Source of the DNA: a virus
Taxonomy: Duplodnaviria; Heunggongvirae; Uroviricota; Caudoviricetes
Reading direction: 5' to 3' (one strand)
DNA: 35,461 bases
IMG/VR virus record: IMGVR_UViG_2778261527_000008
Shown here: one piece after another, positions 1,346 through 34,023 of the stretch
Layout: the number at the start of each line of letters is the position of its first letter
Numbering within the stretch: position 1 is the first letter of the stretch
The notes under the pieces: model-generated
Seen by the model: the letters and a program-made list of their open reading frames with translations, nothing else
Told to the model about the DNA's origin: nothing
Database searches by the model: none
Program-made: the position numbers and the translations under genes

Positions 1346-1703
1346 TTTATACCTCTTTTGGTATGGACTGACTTTTAGATGCTTACTTTATTGATTTTTG
1401 ATATTTTTTCAATTATTGGGATGAGATTTAGTAATTAAATTAAGAAATTAATGCTTGACAAATTAAAAAGGTACTGTTCCACGGATGAAATAAAGGGAGT
1501 TTTCGGCACCCCGGTATTTGATACGCGTGTGAGATTTTAAAACGTGATCAGTGCAGTCCTAGCGCGGTCGCTACGCGACTATTAACCCACTTCCTAGCCC
1601 TTACCATTACTGGATCTTTCCCTTCGTTAGAATGCGATTTAGGCGCTTAGATTGTGCGTAAAACCAATAAATAAAATTACGCAAATTTAATGGAGGATAA
1701 CCA

Positions 1704-2948: not shown

Positions 2949-2974
2949 GGGACTCTTCGGAGTCCCTTTTTTTT
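2949..2974 (+). terminator. rho-independent terminator (second, tandem)
   Basis: gggactc-ttcg-gagtccc followed by 8 T. Confidence 0.6.
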
Positions 2975-3215
2975 ATGCAACAATTCGAAGTGTAAGTTTC
3001 TTATGTTGTGTAGGTTTAGTTTCATTTCGCCACTCAGGGAATACATGATCCATCATAACCGCATTAGTCTCATCAATCAGCTTTAAGGACTTTCTCAACG
3101 CCTTATTATCAGCTTTAAGAGTTTTAATCTCTGATTCCATCGCTACCATTCTTTCTTTCATTTTGGTAATTTCTAACATCAGATTACCCAGAAATTCTTT
3201 GTTTTGATTCATCAT
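2973..3215 (-). CDS. hypothetical coiled-coil protein (80 aa)
   Basis: ORF with GAGGGG RBS; heptad-like KxL periodicity; no recognisable catalytic motif. Confidence 0.4.
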   Translation of the reverse strand: MMNQNKEFLGNLMLEITKMKERMVAMESEIKTLKADNKALRKSLKLIDETNAVMMDHVFPEWRNETKPTQHKKLTLRIVA

Positions 3216-3230
3216 AGATTCACCCCTCTA

Positions 3231-4232
3231 TTAAGCTGCGTATGCGTAGGCGCTGTAGTTGGTGTCGTAGATAGCGTCATGCAGTGCCATCTGTGCTTCG
3301 CGGATCTCGTCTTCGTTTACTTCAATCTCTTCTTGTTCTTCTTCGGTATCTTCCCAAGTGGTTTTGAATTTAGCCATAAAGTTATTGCGCAGGGATTCAA
3401 AGTTAGTAACAGGTGCGGATTTTTCTTCAACCGGAACTACTACCGGATCAGCTTCTTTCTGTTCTTCCTGTTCTACTTTTTCACCATTACCCCAGCGATA
3501 GTTAAGGAGTTCTTCCAGTTCTTCATCAATGGATTTTTCTTCAACTGCTTCAACTTCAACCGCTGCTACTTCGAAAGTGGTTTCCTGTGCTGCCAGTTCA
3601 GCTTTCAGAGATGCGTTTTCAGCTTCCAGTTCAGCAATGCGTGCTTTCAGTGCTTCAACTTCGGAAGATTCAACCACTGCAACTTCTTCTTTAACTTCTT
3701 CAACTACTACCGGAGCAACTTCTTTCTGTGCTTCTTTTTTGCAGAAGAAGGAGGAAGTAACCTGTAATGCGTGGTTGTAGAAGGAACCGCCTTTAGCGGT
3801 GTTAACAGTACCAGAAACATCCTTTACAGTGGATTCGGTAGCAACAGTACGGAAGCGTTTTGCGACTTCCTGGGTCTCTACGCCGTATTCGTTACGCTTG
3901 CTCTTGTGATGCATTACAGCACGGAAGCCGGAAGCAGTTTTAACAACAGCCAGATAGTAAGTTTCATCGGCTTTAACAGCACGAGCGAAGCAATAAACGG
4001 ATTCACCTTCTACCAGTGTAGGTTTAACGTGACGTTTGTCGAAACGGTTAGTGATCTGCCATTCAGCACCGTCTTTGATGCCAGCATTCTGACGCATTTC
4101 GGTCAGAGTCTTACCGGATACTACTTCAAAGGATTTGTCTTGTTTGCTTGCTTTACCTTCCATGACGGTAATGTTCAGTTTGCCGTTGGATTTAATAAAC
4201 AGGTTGAAGGTGATGCGCTTAGAATTTTTCAT
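3231..4232 (-). CDS. hypothetical protein: basic N-terminal domain, coiled coil, strongly acidic C-terminal tail
   Basis: 333-aa ORF with GGAG RBS; EVEALKARIAELEAENASLKAELAAQ coiled coil; Glu-rich tail; family not recognised. Confidence 0.5.
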   Translation of the reverse strand: MKNSKRITFNLFIKSNGKLNITVMEGKASKQDKSFEVVSGKTLTEMRQNAGIKDGAEWQITNRFDKRHVKPTLVEGESVYCFARAVKADETYYLAVVKTASGFRAVMHHKSKRNEYGVETQEVAKRFRTVATESTVKDVSGTVNTAKGGSFYNHALQVTSSFFCKKEAQKEVAPVVVEEVKEEVAVVESSEVEALKARIAELEAENASLKAELAAQETTFEVAAVEVEAVEEKSIDEELEELLNYRWGNGEKVEQEEQKEADPVVVPVEEKSAPVTNFESLRNNFMAKFKTTWEDTEEEQEEIEVNEDEIREAQMALHDAIYDTNYSAYAYAA

Positions 4233-4349
4233 TTATAAATACTCCTGAATGCTGTGTTAGTTTTAATTGTTCATATCAAAAGCCTCCTTGCGCCAACAGG
4301 GAGGCTTTTTTATTTTTAAAGCCATCATATAATTCTCAGTGAAAGGTTA

Positions 4350-4532
4350 TTACCAGACCTCGGCGGTAATCTTTACTTTAATGTCATACTTCTTTAAGAG
4401 TTTGTGGAAGGTTGATTGATCAATACCTTCACCTTTAAACCATTCACCCATCACTACATCAGGTGTCAGTTCAAAATAACGCTTTGCCATTTCTAAAACG
4501 ATTTCACGAGTGAACTTAACAGGTCGTGCCAT
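4350..4532 (-). CDS. small hypothetical protein (60 aa), possible DNA-binding regulator
   Basis: ATG preceded by AGGAGG RBS; first gene leftward of the noncoding control region. Confidence 0.4.
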   Translation of the reverse strand: MARPVKFTREIVLEMAKRYFELTPDVVMGEWFKGEGIDQSTFHKLLKKYDIKVKITAEVW

Positions 4533-4874
4533 CTTATATCCTCCTAAATCTGGAATAATGATTTCTTAAAAAAGAGCTTTTCGCTCTGAACAATTCTATT
4601 TATAAAATGTTTTTCGAAAAACCCTGTAAAACCACTGTATATCCGATCAGTGGGAGCACGAATTGCTAAAGAGAAGATTAATAATTAATCAATTCGTACA
4701 TTATTCAATCGAATAAGCACTGTATGTTTAGCCAGTTCTGTATGAATTAACAGTGAGTCAGGGGATTTTCAGAAGTGAACAATCATTTCATGCATGTATT
4801 TATACACGAAAAAATCTTGCGTATCATCAATATGGGGATTGTTTCGAAAATTTCAACCCCTACCAACGAGAAAA

Positions 4875-4903
4875 AGCATAAAATAATCCTTGACAGTTGT
4901 CAA
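4875..4903 (-). promoter_or_regulatory. candidate sigma70 promoter reading leftward, embedded in palindrome TTGACA-gt-TGTCAA
   Basis: on minus strand -35 TTGACA (4903..4898), 17-nt spacer, -10 TATGCT (4880..4875); the palindrome could also be an operator. Confidence 0.3.
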
Positions 4904-5100
4904 TACACTTGATCTAAGCGAGAGATGACTATCAAAATTTTTGTGTGAAAATGGCGGATAACGATTATCAACCTTTATAACCTATTATAGCACGGCGACC
5001 TTTTGATAATTCTTTTTAAATCATGCATTTACGGCGATTTTTGGTGATTTTCTGGTTAAATAATATACAAGAATTTTCTATCAAAATTTTTGATGAAAAA

Positions 5101-5220
5101 CCTACACTACAAACCTACGCTTTAAAGGGATTGGCCTACACTACACTAGCCAGTAAACCTACACTATAACACCCTCAAACCTACACTATGAAACCTACAC
5201 ACCTACACTAACCCTACACT
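5101..5220. repeat. iteron-like direct repeat array, core CCTACACT (6 perfect + 2 variant copies)
   Basis: copies at 5101, 5114(var), 5135, 5158, 5180, 5194(var), 5202, 5213; three successive spacings of 21-23 bp; often preceded by AAA. Confidence 0.6.
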
Positions 5221-5408
5221 TCAATCTCATAAGTGTATGATATTGAAAGACATTTCACCCCACAGACCATAGAATATAAAATTCGAACTAACGTTCTCCT
5301 TTTTGCTCGTTTTCTCTCACTACGTTCAAGAAAGATCTCGCAAAAAGAATACGGCGTAGCCGTGCGCGAAGCGCCCATCAACACCTTCTAAGACCTGCAA
5401 GCAGGATT

Positions 5409-5561
5409 CGAAAGGGATTGGATAGTTCGCTTCGCTCACGTTCACGCCTACGGCGTTCACTCGCTTTTGAAAGGATTTTCTTAGAAAGGGATTTAATACT
5501 AGTTACTAACTGATTCTAGTAAACGAACGAAGTGAGTAACAATCACTTTCTAGAAAGGTAT
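5409..5561. repeat. second direct-repeat family GAAAGG(G)ATT (4 copies)
   Basis: copies at 5409, 5468, 5483, 5552 inside a GC-richer structured segment. Confidence 0.4.
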
Positions 5562-5799
5562 TGGTTATCCCTTCGGGATTGCAACCTTCGGTTGCTAAAT
5601 TGCTTCCTGATTATTATTTCTCCAAAAGAAAGATTCTTATATTCTAAAGATACTTCTTCGTTTTGATGATGATTTAATCAAACCATGAAGGAGGGCTTTA
5701 GCCCGACTGAATACAATCACCTTTCATAATAACAAGAATTTTCTCTTTATAAATAATAGTGAACTTACTTGATTCACTTTCTTTTAGAGGATTTCCACT

Positions 5800-6267
5800 A
5801 TGAACCATAAAATGACTACCACTACTCCTTTTATCCTTCTGGGTCTGGATTCTGATAGCTTCCACAATGACAAGTTAATGAAGATGTTCCGTGAACGTGG
5901 TTATAACATCCTTTTCAACTCTGATGAATCCCATTTCTCTAGTGCATGGTATGCGTTTTACCGTAATAAGAAGCCGACCATTGTAGTTAACTGCTTCACC
6001 GATGAAGAACGCTTAAAGTACCAGGATCTACCAGCAATTATTGTCCGTGATGATCTGCCGTTTCAAGTCCGTTCCGGTGACATTGATCTGGGTAGCTTCG
6101 TTACTGTCTATGAACTGGATGAAGCAATGTTTAACTACGGCAAAGAAACCGCTCAGGAAGCCCCAGAAGAAGATGAACAAGACGAAGATGACGACGACTA
6201 CGCACCAATCTGTTTTTCTTCTCAGAATGGCTTCTACGGTTACGACGAAGGCTTAGATATGCTGTAA
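5800..6267 (+). CDS. hypothetical protein with strongly acidic C-terminal tail (EEDEQDEDDDDY)
   Basis: 155-aa ORF, AGAGGA RBS, E. coli-like codon usage; first rightward gene after the control region. Confidence 0.5.
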   Translation: MNHKMTTTTPFILLGLDSDSFHNDKLMKMFRERGYNILFNSDESHFSSAWYAFYRNKKPTIVVNCFTDEERLKYQDLPAIIVRDDLPFQVRSGDIDLGSFVTVYELDEAMFNYGKETAQEAPEEDEQDEDDDDYAPICFSSQNGFYGYDEGLDML

Positions 6268-7522: not shown

Positions 7523-7753
7523 TCAAATTCCTGTTGCTTCTACCATTTCACCATCAACCTGAACAAAGAATTTCAAATCAACTTTATGAAGGGATTTGTA
7601 TAGCTGGGCTATGGATAAGCCATGCTCATTTAATACCCGCTCTTTGTTCTCTTTACCTTTCGGTGCTTGATAGTACGCTTTTACAATCGCTGCCAGTTGT
7701 TCACGATTAAAACGGGCAGGGCGACCGCGAGTAGCTTTAGTAGTCATAGTCAT
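7523..7753 (-). CDS. small putative DNA-binding protein with AT-hook-like RGRP motif (76 aa from internal ATG)
   Basis: ORF track starts at a GTG; the ATG at 7753..7751 has a GGAG RBS; MTMTTKATRGRPARF... Confidence 0.4.
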   Translation of the reverse strand: MTMTTKATRGRPARFNREQLAAIVKAYYQAPKGKENKERVLNEHGLSIAQLYKSLHKVDLKFFVQVDGEMVEATGI

Positions 7754-7782: not shown

Positions 7783-8388
7783 TTATTTAGAGGACTTACA
7801 TTTTATCGGAAAAAGTTCTCCATCGTCAACCGACATAAAGAACTCTGCCTTAATCCCGTACTTCTTCAACCGTGAATAATATGTACCCCGACTAATATCA
7901 ACCTTGCGCAGCACTTCGAAGAACTCTTTAGGATTCCTGTAATAGTGGCTATATCGCACGTTAGCGAGTTCTACAAACAATTCCCTTGTATCACCATAGC
8001 CTTTCTTGAAAGCCACGTTACGATAGCGTGTAATGGCATGATTCAATCTCTTCTGTTTAAGCACTTCCCTGATCGGCTTCCACTGCAACCGATAGATAGG
8101 ACCGTCATCAATGCGATAATAACGCTTGATATCAAAATCAAACCAATCTCGGACTCTCCGAAACTCTGTATGTGATGTTCTATGCTTCTTAAAGAAGTTG
8201 TGAACGTCTCTATAGCCATTATCACGGTAAAATTCTATTAAAATCTCTTTCGCTTCCTCACGGCTAAACCCAGATGTTGTGTAATCGGTCTTTAAGTGCT
8301 TATGTTTTACTGGCAAACGATATTCATGATCGGTACAACAAGACAAGGCTAATTCTACTTCATCTCTTTGTTGCTGATTAATTAGCAT
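7783..8388 (-). CDS. hypothetical basic protein with C-terminal HTH-like segment
   Basis: 201-aa ORF; Arg/Lys/Tyr-rich; ISRGTYYSRLKKYGI resembles an HTH recognition helix. Confidence 0.45.
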   Translation of the reverse strand: MLINQQQRDEVELALSCCTDHEYRLPVKHKHLKTDYTTSGFSREEAKEILIEFYRDNGYRDVHNFFKKHRTSHTEFRRVRDWFDFDIKRYYRIDDGPIYRLQWKPIREVLKQKRLNHAITRYRNVAFKKGYGDTRELFVELANVRYSHYYRNPKEFFEVLRKVDISRGTYYSRLKKYGIKAEFFMSVDDGELFPIKCKSSK

Positions 8389-8474
8389 ACACCCTCCTTA
8401 AATCTTAATACCGTATTTATCAAAATATAAACAATTTAATAAATACCTTCATATTTCGTAATGAGGGTAATTAC

Positions 8475-10382
8475 ATGAAACTGATTTCTAATAAGGCAAA
8501 ATTAAAAAAGATTCTCAGAAATGCAGCCAAATATATTACGCCACCGCCTAAACTCCTTCCATCGGAATGGTGCGAAGCGAATCTAACGCTAGTCGATGGT
8601 CCTCGTGCTGGGGATAAAGTTAAATTGCTGTCATTTCAGAAAGGCATGATTGATGCTCCTTTCCTTGAGAAGAAAAAGAAGTACGTTTTTTGTACGAGTG
8701 CGCAGATCGGAAAGACGACCATCATGTCAGGGATCATGTTTAACCAGATGGCAAACGATCCGTGTAATATCATTATCGGGCAAAGTACCGCTAAAGAAGT
8801 GGCTATGTACTTGAATACTAAGATCCGTCCTTCTATTGAAGCATGTCCGGCATTACAGGAAGTGGTAACAGATAAGAATGATCGTAATGCGGTAAACAAC
8901 AATAACCAGATTCAGCTAAAAACAAACCATTTCCTTTACATGGTTTCTTTGACCAGTCCTTCAAGTTTGCGCGGGCGTACTGCCAAGTTAGGGATTGTAG
9001 ACGAATGCGACGCAGCAACAATCACCGAAGAAGGTTGCCCGGTGGCACTAACTGCAAACCGTTTAACTACCTTTGGTGATGAAGCTCGATTGATTGTTTC
9101 TAGTACCCCGACCAATAAGCTGGGAATCATTAACCAGCAATGGTTATCAAGTGATATGCGTATGTTTTTTGTTCCGTGTCCTCATTGCGGGGAACACCAG
9201 GTGATCGAGTGGGAAAACGTTCAATTTGAATGGCGTAACATTGATGGTAAGAACTTACCCGATCCTGATACCGCTCGTTATATTTGCCCCCACTGTAAGA
9301 ACGCATGGACAGAAGGGGAACGAATCAGGGCAGTAGCGCAAGGCGAGTGGAGAGCAACCCGTGAAAGTGAAGTAGCAGGATTCTGGATCAGTCGTCTGTA
9401 TTCACCTTTCAGCACGATCCGCGCTTGTGTGGTTGATTTTAGTCATGCGTGGCAATCCTTTGATTTACAATCCTTTTTTAACACCGTGTTAGGCAAGGTA
9501 TACGACGATCAGGACACGGCAGTAGAAGCAAATGAACTGGAACAACTCAAAACAGATGTTTCTATCGAGAATATCCCTGATGACGTGATTTTCTTGTGTG
9601 CGGGTACTGACCAGCAATTAGATCGCGCAGAAACTACGATCATGGGCGTGGCAAAGGATAAGATTTATATTCTGGATCACCGCAGCTTTTACGATCATAA
9701 CTGTGAACGATATGAATCACCTGTATGGGATAGATTAATCAACTTCCATAAAACCAAATTTACTACTGTATCGGGTGATCGTGTTCCTATGCTCGCCAGC
9801 TTCCTTGATACATCGAACGGTCGATTCACTCAAGCTGGATACCGTATTTGCGGCAAGTGGAAGAACTTACACGCTATCAAAGGTAGTTCTGCTGGTAACG
9901 CTCCGATCATTCCGGTTAAACCTACCCGCACAGGTGGTCATGAATTGCTTATGCTGGGCGTTAACGTTGGGAAATCCGCTGTTCGTGAAATGCTGGTTAG
10001 AAACCTGAAAGATAATCCTCATATTGGCTTAGAAATATCAGAAACCATTCCTGATGATTATCTCGATCAGCTTTTGAGTGAATCCATCAAGCGTACTACT
10101 ACTGGCGTGCGTTGGGTGAAAAATCCAGGTAGTACCCGAAACGAGGCTCTCGACTGTCTGGTTTATAGCTATGCTGCTTCTCGCTACGTTCTTTCAAAAA
10201 TGTCATGGGATAAACTCATTGCAATGAAAGACAGCTTAAACCGTGTTGTCGAAGAATCCGTAGAAGCTCCTAAATCGCAATCTGACGAGCAAATCGAAGA
10301 AAATAAGCCAATCACACGACCACAACGTAAAAACATCGCCAGACGCCCAAATAGAGGCCGTAGCTGGGTAACATCGTTCTAA
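8475..10382 (+). CDS. terminase large subunit, lambda GpA family
   Basis: 635 aa, size and motifs (zinc-finger-like CPHCG...CPHC segment) consistent with GpA-type terminases; GAGGG RBS. Confidence 0.8.
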
Positions 10383-14714: not shown

Positions 14715-15005
14715 ATGTTCAAATTATCAGAATCACAATTAAATCGAATGTTTAAAAGTGCTCCTGTATTTTCGGTGGAAGGTGGTAAATCAATTCGTGC
14801 TTATCATGAAATTACTACTACCGACGAATCGGGGGTAATGACAGAAACAGAATTTCTATTCTGTCGTGAGGGAGACTTAAAGCAAGGTGATATTGTCACA
14901 GTAGAAAACCAGCGTTTCAAAGTTCAATACGTTAAGCGCAATGGTGACAATACTTGTGATTGCTTTATCACTTTAGCAGGGGGTACACATGCTCGCTACC
15001 GTTAA
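14715..15005 (+). CDS. head-tail adaptor / head completion protein (candidate)
   Basis: 96-aa ORF directly after capsid gene, AGGGGG RBS; synteny only. Confidence 0.4.
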   Translation: MFKLSESQLNRMFKSAPVFSVEGGKSIRAYHEITTTDESGVMTETEFLFCREGDLKQGDIVTVENQRFKVQYVKRNGDNTCDCFITLAGGTHARYR

Positions 15006-15411
15006 TAATATGCCGAGACTGAAAATCAAACGCGCCTTGCAAGATATTATCGAACAAGATTTAGGTCTGGCTTTAAACGTAGAACAAACTCAGCAAGGCT
15101 TTAGTGATGACGTGGTTTGTTGGATTACTGGCATGAATGAGACTTACACAAGGGTCCGTGGCGGTAATGCAATGCAAGCTGAATGCGTTATCGAAATGCA
15201 GTTATATTCTCAGATTCATGAAACGAAAATTCATGAGGGTATTTGCCAGATAATCCAGATTCAGCCAGATAACCCACGATTTAAAGATTTGGGCTTCTCT
15301 ATTTCAGATATCACTCCAGTAGCTTCTAATACCGATTATGACGATGATTCTAGTGATGGGGGTATCGTTGGGACACTTAGCCTTAAATTTTCTTATCTAG
15401 CGCGTTTTTAA
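14989..15411 (+). CDS. head-tail joining or tail completion protein (candidate)
   Basis: 140-aa ORF overlapping previous stop by 17 nt; synteny only. Confidence 0.35.
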   Translation: MLATVNNMPRLKIKRALQDIIEQDLGLALNVEQTQQGFSDDVVCWITGMNETYTRVRGGNAMQAECVIEMQLYSQIHETKIHEGICQIIQIQPDNPRFKDLGFSISDITPVASNTDYDDDSSDGGIVGTLSLKFSYLARF

Positions 15412-32280: not shown

Positions 32281-33960
32281 TTAAATTCCAAATTCTTGTA
32301 ATGGACCTGGTATTTCTTCTTCTGGTTTCCAGTTCTTATCTGTCAGCATGTCTAAACATGGATGCAGAACAAGCCCGTTACTCTCCAGAATCTGCCTATC
32401 ATTGATAGTCTTCAAATCAACGAAGATCCGGCCTTTCCTCGGTCCTCTTGAATTTTCTATTACAACTCTCTGGGTCTTGCCATCGATGTATTCCAGTACA
32501 AACAAGTTTTTGTACTTGTCAATCCTGCTACACCCGATCCGTTTTAGAGCTTGCTTAATCTTAAACCGGACCTTAATGCGATCCTCGTTGTAAACATCTT
32601 CTAAATCAAATTCTGCGAGCTTCTCCCAGCCTTGAGAGTCAACAGAATACATTTCCTCTTCTGCCATCTTAAGTTGATTGTAGAGTGTTTCACGCTCGCT
32701 ATTGAGGGTAGTAATCTGATCGGCTAGCTCCTTCGTTGCTCCTGTCATAGCAGAAAGGGTAATCAGGTTATCAATCTTGCGTGATATTTCATCAATCTGT
32801 ACTTTCAAAGCCGGAACCGGATTAGCCTTATCTTCAGCAATCCAGATTTTATCAGCCAGCAATTGCAATACAGCTTTCTCTAATTGGTCGCCGCGAAAAC
32901 TCCAGTTTGTATGCACACATTCAATACGACTAGAGCGCATTGCATCGCATGAATAACGATATTGGTTAGGCCGTCTGTTTGTTCCTTTCACCTTAACCAT
33001 AGCGGAACCGCAATGTTCACATTTCAATAGACCAACACCACTAAGCAAGGGAATAGGTTTAGCTTCTTCTTTGTCTCCAAAGTTACATGCTCTAACACCA
33101 ATGCTTTTCTTAAGGTGATAAAACTCAGCGTCATCTAGCACACGAGGATAATAATCCTTTAACTCATACTTAACGCCATCTACAGAGATTTCCTTGATAC
33201 CAATCAAAGCGCGGGTATGGAACAACCTTTCAATCATTGCCCGTGACCAGTTTGAATGCCTCTTGTGACTTGCGGCTGGTGGTGGTGTGTATGTCGCGTT
33301 AAGGTGATCCAGTATCTCGGCGGTTGACCGTCCATTCCTGCGTAATTCCACAACTTCCTGAACAATAGGGAAGAAGACCGGATGAGGAAGCACATAACCA
33401 GATGTGGTATCAGTCCACCACATATTCTTTCCAATTTCCTCGATTGCAACAGCCGGATTTTGTGGATTTTCTTGATGAGCTTTAATCTTAATCAGTGCGC
33501 TTGAGTTAGTACGATTGCGCTTAGTCTGGCTTTCCTCATTACCACGGATGAATAAAAGGATGGAGAACATCAGGTCCATCGGGTTAGCGGTAACAGTATC
33601 AAGCGAGTAGATCTTGTTATCCATGCCAGTAACAATGGTTATCCCCCTACGGATGATTGAAAGGAATAACTCCTGCGCACTGACAATATCGGCACGGGAT
33701 AAACGGTCCAAGTTTTCGATGAATAGCCAGCTACCAACAGGAACGGATCTACCTATTGCATCAAGGAAACGAGATAGCGCCCCTGTTTTGGAGTTAGCAC
33801 CCTTAAACGCAGATACACCCAGATCCTGATAATCATTTACCAGTTCAAGGTCATACTTTACCGCAATCTCTCTAGCCATCCTGATTTGTCGTTCATAACT
33901 CGAACCATCATTCTGACGCATAGACGAGAAGCGAATATACGAATACAGTTTAGTTTTCAT
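32281..33960 (-). CDS. large serine recombinase (integrase/resolvase family)
   Basis: 559 aa from ATG at 33960; N-terminal resolvase catalytic motif YIRFSS..Q; Cys-rich zinc ribbon CEHCG...C..C; coiled-coil segment. Confidence 0.8.
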   Translation of the reverse strand: MKTKLYSYIRFSSMRQNDGSSYERQIRMAREIAVKYDLELVNDYQDLGVSAFKGANSKTGALSRFLDAIGRSVPVGSWLFIENLDRLSRADIVSAQELFLSIIRRGITIVTGMDNKIYSLDTVTANPMDLMFSILLFIRGNEESQTKRNRTNSSALIKIKAHQENPQNPAVAIEEIGKNMWWTDTTSGYVLPHPVFFPIVQEVVELRRNGRSTAEILDHLNATYTPPPAASHKRHSNWSRAMIERLFHTRALIGIKEISVDGVKYELKDYYPRVLDDAEFYHLKKSIGVRACNFGDKEEAKPIPLLSGVGLLKCEHCGSAMVKVKGTNRRPNQYRYSCDAMRSSRIECVHTNWSFRGDQLEKAVLQLLADKIWIAEDKANPVPALKVQIDEISRKIDNLITLSAMTGATKELADQITTLNSERETLYNQLKMAEEEMYSVDSQGWEKLAEFDLEDVYNEDRIKVRFKIKQALKRIGCSRIDKYKNLFVLEYIDGKTQRVVIENSRGPRKGRIFVDLKTINDRQILESNGLVLHPCLDMLTDKNWKPEEEIPGPLQEFGI

Positions 33961-34023
33961 ACCATTTCCAAACAAAAACGCCCCTACCGCGTATTATAAC
34001 GATAGGGGCCAGGTGATTAAAGA

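Follow-up and report, generated by a model that had tools for sequence, protein, structure and literature searches.

An iteron-like repeat array and its proposed binding protein in a family of Escherichia coli prophages

The repeat array in the hicB prophage

The DNA analyzed here (IMG/VR virus record IMGVR_UViG_2778261527_000008; 35,461 nucleotides, hereafter the window) is a complete prophage of ~35 kb in the Escherichia coli antitoxin gene hicB, which it splits. The first 351 bases of the window are the 5' part of hicB, and the 3' part is found beyond the right end (35461) in E. coli CE0007a. An array of short direct repeats lies at 5098-5222 within a gap of 1,267 bp (4533-5799). To the left of this gap are two minus-strand genes, one for the small helix-turn-helix (HTH)-like protein p60 (4350-4532) and, just behind it, one for a protein of 333 amino acids (aa), p333 (3231-4232); the gene on the right is at 5800-6267. 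We propose p333 as the cognate iteron-binding protein of the array, on the basis of comparisons among related prophages.

The array consists of eight direct copies of (A)AACCTACACT(A) spanning 5101-5220. Six are exact copies of the 8-mer CCTACACT (starting at 5101, 5135, 5158, 5180, 5202 and 5213) and two are one-mismatch variants (CCTACGCT at 5114 and CCTACACA at 5194). All eight are on the plus strand and the top strand is C-rich. The start-to-start steps are 13, 21, 23, 22, 14, 8 and 11 bp. An earlier note on this DNA had listed eight copies in one orientation at these positions, with three successive spacings of 21-23 bp; both the copies and the spacings (21, 23 and 22 bp) were recovered. 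Tandem Repeats Finder reported a 22-bp unit at 5155-5210. When both strands of the window were searched, eight exact matches to CCTACACT were found against 0.52 ± 0.69 expected, and none of 100 shuffles reached eight. The two matches outside the array are isolated (4015, minus strand; 11639, plus strand). The best helical period of the eight array sites is 11.2 bp (R=0.83), and 1.1 % of random placements equal that value. The repeats are real and helically phased.

The location was described earlier as gene-free, and the annotation agrees: RefSeq places no coding sequence in the gap 4533-5799 of a 99.7 % identical E. coli chromosome, and the open reading frames (ORFs) that overlap the array are short mechanical ones only. 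The array is also stable among close relatives. It is almost unchanged across 10 relatives of the same array class (class A, see below), one of which (L024) has cleanly lost exactly one 22-bp unit. The motif CCTACACT was not found in the other two divergent control regions of the window (1346-1703 and 8389-8474). When the whole prophage was searched with Pfam, PHROGs and PADLOC, no replication, partition or CI-type protein was recognisable (PADLOC returned nothing), in line with the earlier remark that no Rep or Par protein was obvious.

Covariation of the array with p333

Relatives were fetched via the large terminase subunit (TerL) and via a conserved 201-aa protein. For each relative the protein beside the p60 gene was classified and the commonest 8-mers of the gap were taken. 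When the array motif was compared with the class of the adjacent protein in 30 elements (29 IMG/VR contigs and the window), no discordant element was observed. In 14 elements CCTACACT accompanies class A (p333 type, MKNSKRITFN...). Class B (313-319 aa, MLFSANFF...) goes with the 8-mer TTTGCCCCTGAA / TTTGCCCCTG, also in 14 elements, and class C (333-337 aa, MKQNNFSITVY...) with ~17 copies of (T/A)TCCCCG, core TCCCCG, in two. Class D is a single locus (L082; 11566-13151, minus orientation) with tandem arrays of TCCCCGGTATTAG (seven copies) and ATGTACAAGG (13 copies) and with array-type proteins of 371 aa and, as a paralog, 363 aa. In class E, again a single locus (L084), identity of the protein to p333 is 45 % and the motif is CCTGCACT (iteron CCCTGCACTAA), one base off class A. 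Arrays contain 5-20 copies; phasing is 10.2-11.2 bp in all classes, and the C-rich strand is on top in classes A-E.

A homolog 66 % identical to p333 retains CCTACACT. Taken with the one-base change that accompanies the 45 % identical protein, this looks like graded co-evolution. When the window was compared with the class-B relative L021, the replaced segments were exactly 2973-4232 (the genes of p80, a small neighbour of p333, and of p333 itself) and 5096-5460 (the array with a further 240 bp). The intervening 860 bp, p60 included, are common to both elements, and both types of p60 were found with class A as well as with class B. Thus, recombination has parted the two segments, yet the pairing has never been broken, and simple linkage does not account for it. 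In another relative (L080) a class-B N-terminus is joined to a differing C-terminus and accompanied by a class-B array, which indicates that the N-terminal domain carries the specificity. The types of p155, of the small terminase subunit (TerS, p184) and of TerL assort freely with the array class.

The array and p333 therefore very probably form a cognate protein/site pair, and the p333 gene together with the array appears to be a swappable specificity module. The term iteron-like, used in the earlier note, fits what was found: the direct, helically phased repeats change with the class of one protein, as would the sites of a sequence-specific protein. The note had also supposed that the binding protein may be among the unassigned island proteins or encoded elsewhere, and the comparative data point to the 333-aa protein at 3231-4232 (minus strand).

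A few elements combine features of two classes. In four class-B elements of the L006 type (L006 at 4643-4694, L004, L010 and L023), two or three class-A-like iterons (CCTACAC) stand at the left edge of the TTTGCCCCTG array; they are possibly a relic of cassette replacement or a source of cross-talk between classes. Strain UTME-9 (one genome) contains one class-A and one class-B element. Strain BS74R-D contains two distinct prophages, in ycdX and hicB, with an identical class-B protein and an identical p60; they are 94 % identical over the left 5.5 kb. The accessions for these strains are NZ_CP063332.1 (L136, L137) and NZ_CP157110.1.

The protein p333 is composed of a beta-rich N-terminal domain of ~170 aa, a coiled coil at ~187-248, an acidic linker and a C-terminus that ends in ...AYAYAA. 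No Pfam, PHROG, PADLOC, PDB sequence or fold match was obtained. An exhaustive search of 1.8 billion cluster representatives returned only six relatives, a word-indexed search returned only near-identical hypothetical proteins of E. coli and Shigella, and tblastn against 50,697 phage records gave no match. In an AlphaFold2 model built from four input sequences, residues ~31-110 have a predicted local distance difference test score of 76-90, and the predicted order is three strands, two helices, three to four strands and then a long coiled coil. Residues E90, Y92, M107, H109, S111 and F162-F163 are invariant in the family. Neither an HTH nor a known repressor domain nor a nucleoside triphosphatase (NTPase) domain was recognised in p333. 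It has no HUH motif either, and so lacks the HUH metal motif with catalytic Tyr motif that marks an HUH rolling-circle origin. At present every database labels p333 hypothetical, and the pairing with the array gives it a role.

The p333-type proteins end in -AA (AYAYAA, RRAA, LKAA or DFAA), the second paralog and p80 in RLVA or RIVA, and distant members in KVI, VVI or KAI. Tails recognised by ClpX include the ssrA tag, which ends in LAA, and MuA, which ends in RRKKAI. By analogy, the -AA/-VA/-AI tails of the family suggest ClpX-type turnover. Length variation (328-343 aa) among other members falls in the acidic linker, and in one class-A protein (L055, 3224-4249) the C-terminal AY repeat is lengthened to ...AYAYAYAYAYAA.

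Two small genes accompany p333. The coiled-coil protein p80 (2973-3215, minus strand; ending LTLRIVA) is inherited with p333 every time and appears to be the leftover C-terminal part of another array-binding protein, a second paralog. Full-length second paralogs are present in L017 (class C, 333 aa) and L082 (class D, 363 aa), and both end in PTLRLVA. The gene of p60 lies on the same strand just upstream of p333, within the ~870 bp that separate the p333 gene from the array. This gene pair is kept even in distant relatives, and the p60 type is independent of the array class.

Candidate functions of the array and p333

From architecture and by elimination, the most likely function is that of a phage replication origin, formed by the array and the adjoining AT-rich stretch (~5000-5097), with p333 as its initiator; we hold this reading tentatively, with confidence somewhat short of even. 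The beta-rich N-terminal domain would read the ~9-11-bp iteron, and, given the phasing of the sites at ~11 bp, the coiled coil would allow many copies of p333 to line up along a single face of the helix. The iteron-bound oligomers would then deform and melt the AT-rich flank, and the C-terminal part would recruit host replication proteins. In this scheme p333 would be a lambda-O-like initiator of a new protein family.

An origin is favoured because many phased direct sites lie at a single locus and the motif is missing from the other two divergent control regions, and because the array adjoins an AT-rich flank that is common to most classes. It is also favoured because specificity seems to sit in the N-terminal domain, as in lambda O, and because the complete phage has no other candidate initiator, the small HTH-like proteins p60, p74 and p201 being free to act as repressor or Cro. 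In addition, p333 lies behind two terminator-like hairpins, so that a delayed lytic function, as of delayed-early genes, fits better than that of a maintenance repressor.

Lambda O and ori-lambda, like the O/ori pairs of other lambdoid phages, resemble the proposed system in having phased initiator sites beside an AT-rich stretch. The N-terminal domain of O sets the iteron specificity and is swapped between relatives, and the remainder is more conserved. O is a ClpXP substrate, and p333, with the tails of its family, is probably short-lived as well. However, p333 resembles O neither in sequence nor in fold (a Pfam search gave no match) and the prophage encodes no P-like helicase loader. Ori-lambda, located within the O gene, has four 19-bp sites with internal symmetry; the direct repeats found here are short and asymmetric, number 8-20 and lie ~870 bp from the p333 gene with another gene between.

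Iteron plasmids (P1 RepA/oriR, F RepE/ori2, R6K pi and pSC101 RepA) have three to nine or more direct repeats spaced by one or two helical turns, an AT-rich region adjoining them and a cognate protein encoded nearby. In one relative (L138, described below) two iterons in inverted orientation lie close to a candidate promoter for the leftward p60-p333 unit, which recalls Rep autoregulation. The iterons of these plasmids are 17-22 bp long, their Rep proteins are of the winged-helix type and DnaA boxes are usual, in contrast to the ~9-11-bp core, the different unassigned protein fold and the lack of a detected DnaA box in this integrating phage. The origins of Staphylococcus aureus pathogenicity islands (SaPI) and of P4, served by a Rep helicase or the alpha protein, likewise have many short iterons of 6-9 bp near an AT-rich segment and a covarying protein/iteron specificity. 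Those initiators have helicase or primase domains of their own, unlike p333, which has no NTPase domain.

Several observations weigh against an origin. No DnaA box (TTATCCACA, up to one mismatch) is present in 4533-5799, no homology of p333 to known Rep or O initiator families was found, and no helicase loader was identified in the prophage. The AT-rich flank is not unique, as four other windows of the gap have 23-27 % GC. GC skew, which the earlier note had suggested as a means to locate the origin, gave no origin signal at 5.1 kb: its cumulative minimum is near 8.7 kb and it tracks gene orientation, so that it is uninformative for the array. Class D, with two arrays and two paralogous proteins, is not predicted by a simple one-initiator model. 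Three further points also count in favour of a role in transcription: the array ends 32 bp short of a promoter-like site, the rightward unit beginning beyond the array continues into the terminase genes in L091 and L103, and close relatives fall into many specificity classes, a classic immunity-region pattern.

If p333 does act as an initiator, its family would be an undescribed class of sequence-specific DNA-binding proteins (beta-rich, possibly PUR/Whirly-like, with a coiled coil and a degron-like tail). It would provide the sole phage-encoded initiator of widespread E. coli prophages that have no helicase, loader or primase gene, with at least five orthogonal specificities and, in some phages, two paralogs and two arrays. 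This broader proposal is more doubtful and is made with corresponding caution. Iteron arrays with cognate proteins are already known; the one described here involves an unclassified protein family and at least five matched specificities.

Transcription control is a serious competitor, though less probable than an origin. The rightward promoter at ~5247-5282 would be controlled by the array, either as a cluster of type-specific operators or as an upstream activating array, p333 would be a master regulator and the classes would be immunity or regulatory types. As variants, p333 may be an immunity repressor like Mu c (DNA-binding domain, coiled coil and protease-sensitive tail) or a direct-repeat activator like Alt of TP901-1. 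The array lies between divergent units, and the layout with a rightward unit running into the terminase is that expected of an operator or an upstream activating array. The 240 bp swapped along with the array bear the promoter-like hexamers, and the computed centres of two sites fall near -73 and -84 from the predicted start. Helically phased direct-repeat operators are known in P2 C (two repeats 22 bp apart) and Mu c (many sites), and the five or more specificity classes in near-identical phages resemble immunity diversity.

The same reading is opposed by the restriction of the motif to one of the three divergent control regions, by the number of sites (8-20 over 125-480 bp), which exceeds known operators, and by the promoter-like element, which is not conserved in class B or class E. 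The place of p333 behind two terminator-like hairpins and the lack of an HTH or known repressor domain also speak against it. Two genomes (n=2), too few to decide, bear on same-type exclusion: UTME-9 with A plus B and BS74R-D with two distinct prophages whose class-B modules are identical. For an immunity role the latter is mildly unexpected, and gene conversion could explain it.

The closest parallel in transcription control is Mu c with its operators O1-O3, together with P2 C and its direct-repeat operators. In Mu c an N-terminal domain that binds DNA is followed by a coiled coil and a ClpXP-linked C-terminal tail, the protein acts at many short sites over ~200 bp between divergent units, and heteroimmune relatives have swapped specificities. 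It differs in being a winged-helix protein encoded beside its operators and expressed in lysogens, whereas p333 is encoded behind the hairpins and ~870 bp from the array, and no transposase uses the same sites.

Unlikely, though not negligible, is that the array is the cognate site of p333 in some other role, for example as a nucleoprotein structure countering H-NS silencing of this 40 %-GC element or as a site of inter-phage competition. The covariation indicates a cognate pair and is silent on function, and the 37-45 % GC of the element is AT-rich for an E. coli resident. Nothing specific favours such a role, and the family-wide presence of the pair argues for a core function.

A packaging site of the cosB or pac type is very improbable. 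TerL is of the lambda gpA type, small terminases often bind short direct-repeat arrays, the array lies between the TerS and TerL genes, and p333, with its DNA-binding domain, coiled coil and C-terminal tail, is laid out loosely like a small terminase. We nevertheless consider this unlikely, since neither TerS nor TerL varies with the array and the region upstream of p184 offers a better candidate for cos. The protein p184 is the canonical Nu1-like TerS (PHROG 57 match), and its identity to the window copy overlaps between classes (class A 89-97 %, class B 87-95 %, one class-C element 94 %). TerL proteins 58 % or 97 % identical occur with the same array. A distance of 2.8 kb separates the array from the TerS gene end, and one of 3.3 kb separates it from the TerL gene start. 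The cos candidate is directly upstream of p184 (1490-1650), GC-rich and partly symmetric (GTCGCTACGCGAC).

A partition centromere of the parC or sopC type, one of the two functions put forward earlier, is the least probable, because no NTPase was found and the element is integrated. The 11-bp phased direct repeats resemble R1 parC, where such repeats carry a helical protein array as in similar type II centromeres, and the C-terminal tail of p333, behind its DNA-binding domain, could make contact with a motor protein. However, the scan of ORFs with Pfam and PHROGs revealed no NTPase of the ParA, ParM or TubZ type, all 60 of 60 E. coli places are chromosomal with none on plasmids, and a distant search gave no plasmid match to the array region. 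In addition, p333 is three times larger than ParR and is not predicted to be a ribbon-helix-helix protein.

If either the origin or the master-regulator role is true, a phage family in ~1 % of complete E. coli genomes uses a protein of unknown fold for it, and a phage with no recognisable replication genes becomes experimentally tractable. The matched pairs (class A CCTACACT, E CCTGCACT, B TTTGCCCCTG, C TCCCCG and D TCCCCGGTATTAG plus ATGTACAAGG) are a data set for a new DNA-recognition code, and the protein/iteron pairs are also a source of orthogonal binding modules.

Flanking elements and the prophage family

The AT-rich left flank of the array (4929-5097; 25-28 % GC at 5000-5119) is a candidate for the unwinding element and also forms the left-hand junction of the cassette that is swapped. 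Two exact copies of a 15-bp near-palindrome, CTATCAAAATTTTTG, bracket it at 4929-4943 and 5078-5092, and it ends in CTATCAAAAT(A/T)TTTGA. The same array-start junction is present in classes A, C and D and in the class-B element L021; class B of the L006 type and class E have different left flanks.

The class-linked right flank (5223-5460, plus strand) contains promoter-like hexamers and short GC hairpins and is swapped along with the array in L021 (window 5096-5460). The hexamers, which are consensus matches only, are AAGACA-17-TAGAAT (5247-5275) and TTCACC-17-TAAAAT (5254-5282). They begin 25 bp (5247) and 32 bp (5254) past the array and thus lie outside it; inside the array there is one weak minus-strand promoter match (5192-5163), again by consensus only. 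The hairpin sequence GCGCGAAGCGC at 5366-5376 has a distant complement, CGCTTCGC, at 5428-5435.

The leader before the first rightward gene (5461-5799, plus strand) is common to the classes. It carries three copies of GAAAGGNATT, ATCACTTTC-type motifs partly complementary to them, and TTCG-loop hairpins at 5575-5598. Many short GC hairpins with TTCG, GAA, GTA or TAC loops were seen in 5290-5800 and also in L138 (2500-2900) and L103 (5960-6350), and the leader layout of L103 is analogous to that of the window. The leader hairpin GCAACCTTCGGTTGC (5584-5598) is swapped for GCCCCTACGGGGC in L138, so that the structure is kept and the sequence changed. Such a hairpin leader could be an RNA-based control element of the P4 or P1 immI type, or could hold single-strand priming signals.

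The two terminator-like hairpins lie on the p60 side of the gap. The first, GC-rich, is between p60 and p333 (4278-4309) within the segment 4233-4580 common to all classes. It is strongly intrinsic-terminator-like on the plus strand and weaker on the minus strand, with 4 U after the stem. The second, with a T-run, is on the minus strand at 4573-4587, ~40 nt ahead of the p60 start codon. All classes retain it (L006, L017, L082, L084, L103 and L138), with differing stems. These stems (AGAGC/GCTCT, GAGCG/CGCTC and CCTCTC/GAGAGG) were read by eye from the alignment, as RNAalifold misaligned the hairpins.

In the class-A relative L138, an inverted pair of iteron cores (ACCTACAC ... GTGTAGGG) at 3400-3440 brackets a conserved GTATTTATAA element ~330 bp to the left of the main array. 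Such a pair, which recalls the autoregulatory inverted repeats of Rep systems, is not present in the window.

In the lineage of the window a block of 5-6 kb lies between the TerS gene (1704-2258) and the TerL gene (8475-10382; lambda gpA-type). Relatives whose TerL is 38-42 % identical have a p184 homolog that overlaps the start of TerL, which identifies p184 as the canonical Nu1-like small terminase. As TerS and TerL overlap in these distant relatives (L106-L115), the early/regulatory block was apparently inserted between them. Relatives with TerL ~49 % identical (L103 and L094) again have a p333-like protein in the block and, just before TerL, a conserved ORF of 168 aa in which an HNH-like motif was noticed by eye. 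In L103 a p60-like ORF stands ahead of the p333-like gene, together with an array of six copies of ATGACACTCAATC and a hairpin-rich leader. This recurrence in distant relatives indicates that the non-structural part of the family has a conserved core, built from the p333-like protein, the small HTH ORF, the array and the leader.

Two further occurrences of the iteron pattern were set aside as unrelated. In contigs of giant-virus metagenome-assembled genomes (MAGs; L029, L032, L033 and L039) it is an 11-bp tandem repeat, AAACCTACACT, near the contig ends of these AT-rich MAGs. In rumen Bacteroidales MAGs (L139-L173) it belongs to a multicopy element, again with AAACCTACACT, and many of the units form pairs in inverted orientation at a distance of 150-330 bp.

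Related elements were found in 57 of 5,426 complete E. coli genomes (~1 %), always in the chromosome and in hicB or ycdX. Prophages of the family are ~32-38 kb in size and have lambda-type terminases. The lineage appears to be uncharacterised, with no relative among deposited phage genomes. Megablast of the array region against phage records returned nothing, the scan of one-genome-per-species contigs with TerL gave no relative, and nothing relevant on the insertion site or the motifs was found in the literature. Rfam gave no match at gathering level in the whole window and chance-level matches only in the gap at E≤5. The nearest TerL in phage records (43 % identity) is from Escherichia phage DCP80 (PQ671644.1; 141 kb). 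DCP80 is filed as a T4-like Gaprivervirus and yet opens with a lambda gpA-type terminase module, so the record may be a chimeric assembly. It was set aside as a reference relative, as T4-like genes are mixed with this terminase module.

Other functions encoded in the window are a serine recombinase (integrase; 32281-33975, -), a lambda-type portal, a fused protease-capsid protein, tail and fibre proteins and an M15 endolysin. The minus-strand genes of p60 (4350-4532), p74 (7523-7747) and p201 (7783-8388) encode a common short HTH-like module, ...S(T/I)xxx(F/L)xKxL(K/H)KxDIK, and none of the three proteins has a family match. Two copies of the module are present in p201, and the N-termini of p60 and p74 have an Arg-rich RGRPxxF(T/N)RE motif. 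ARAGORN called a 91-nt tRNA-Glu (anticodon ttc) at 15176-15266 on the minus strand inside an ORF at 14989-15411, probably a false positive because of its length and location. In the circular form, p256, the gene at the left end, would be joined to the int-proximal genes across the phage attachment site attP, giving a single leftward unit.

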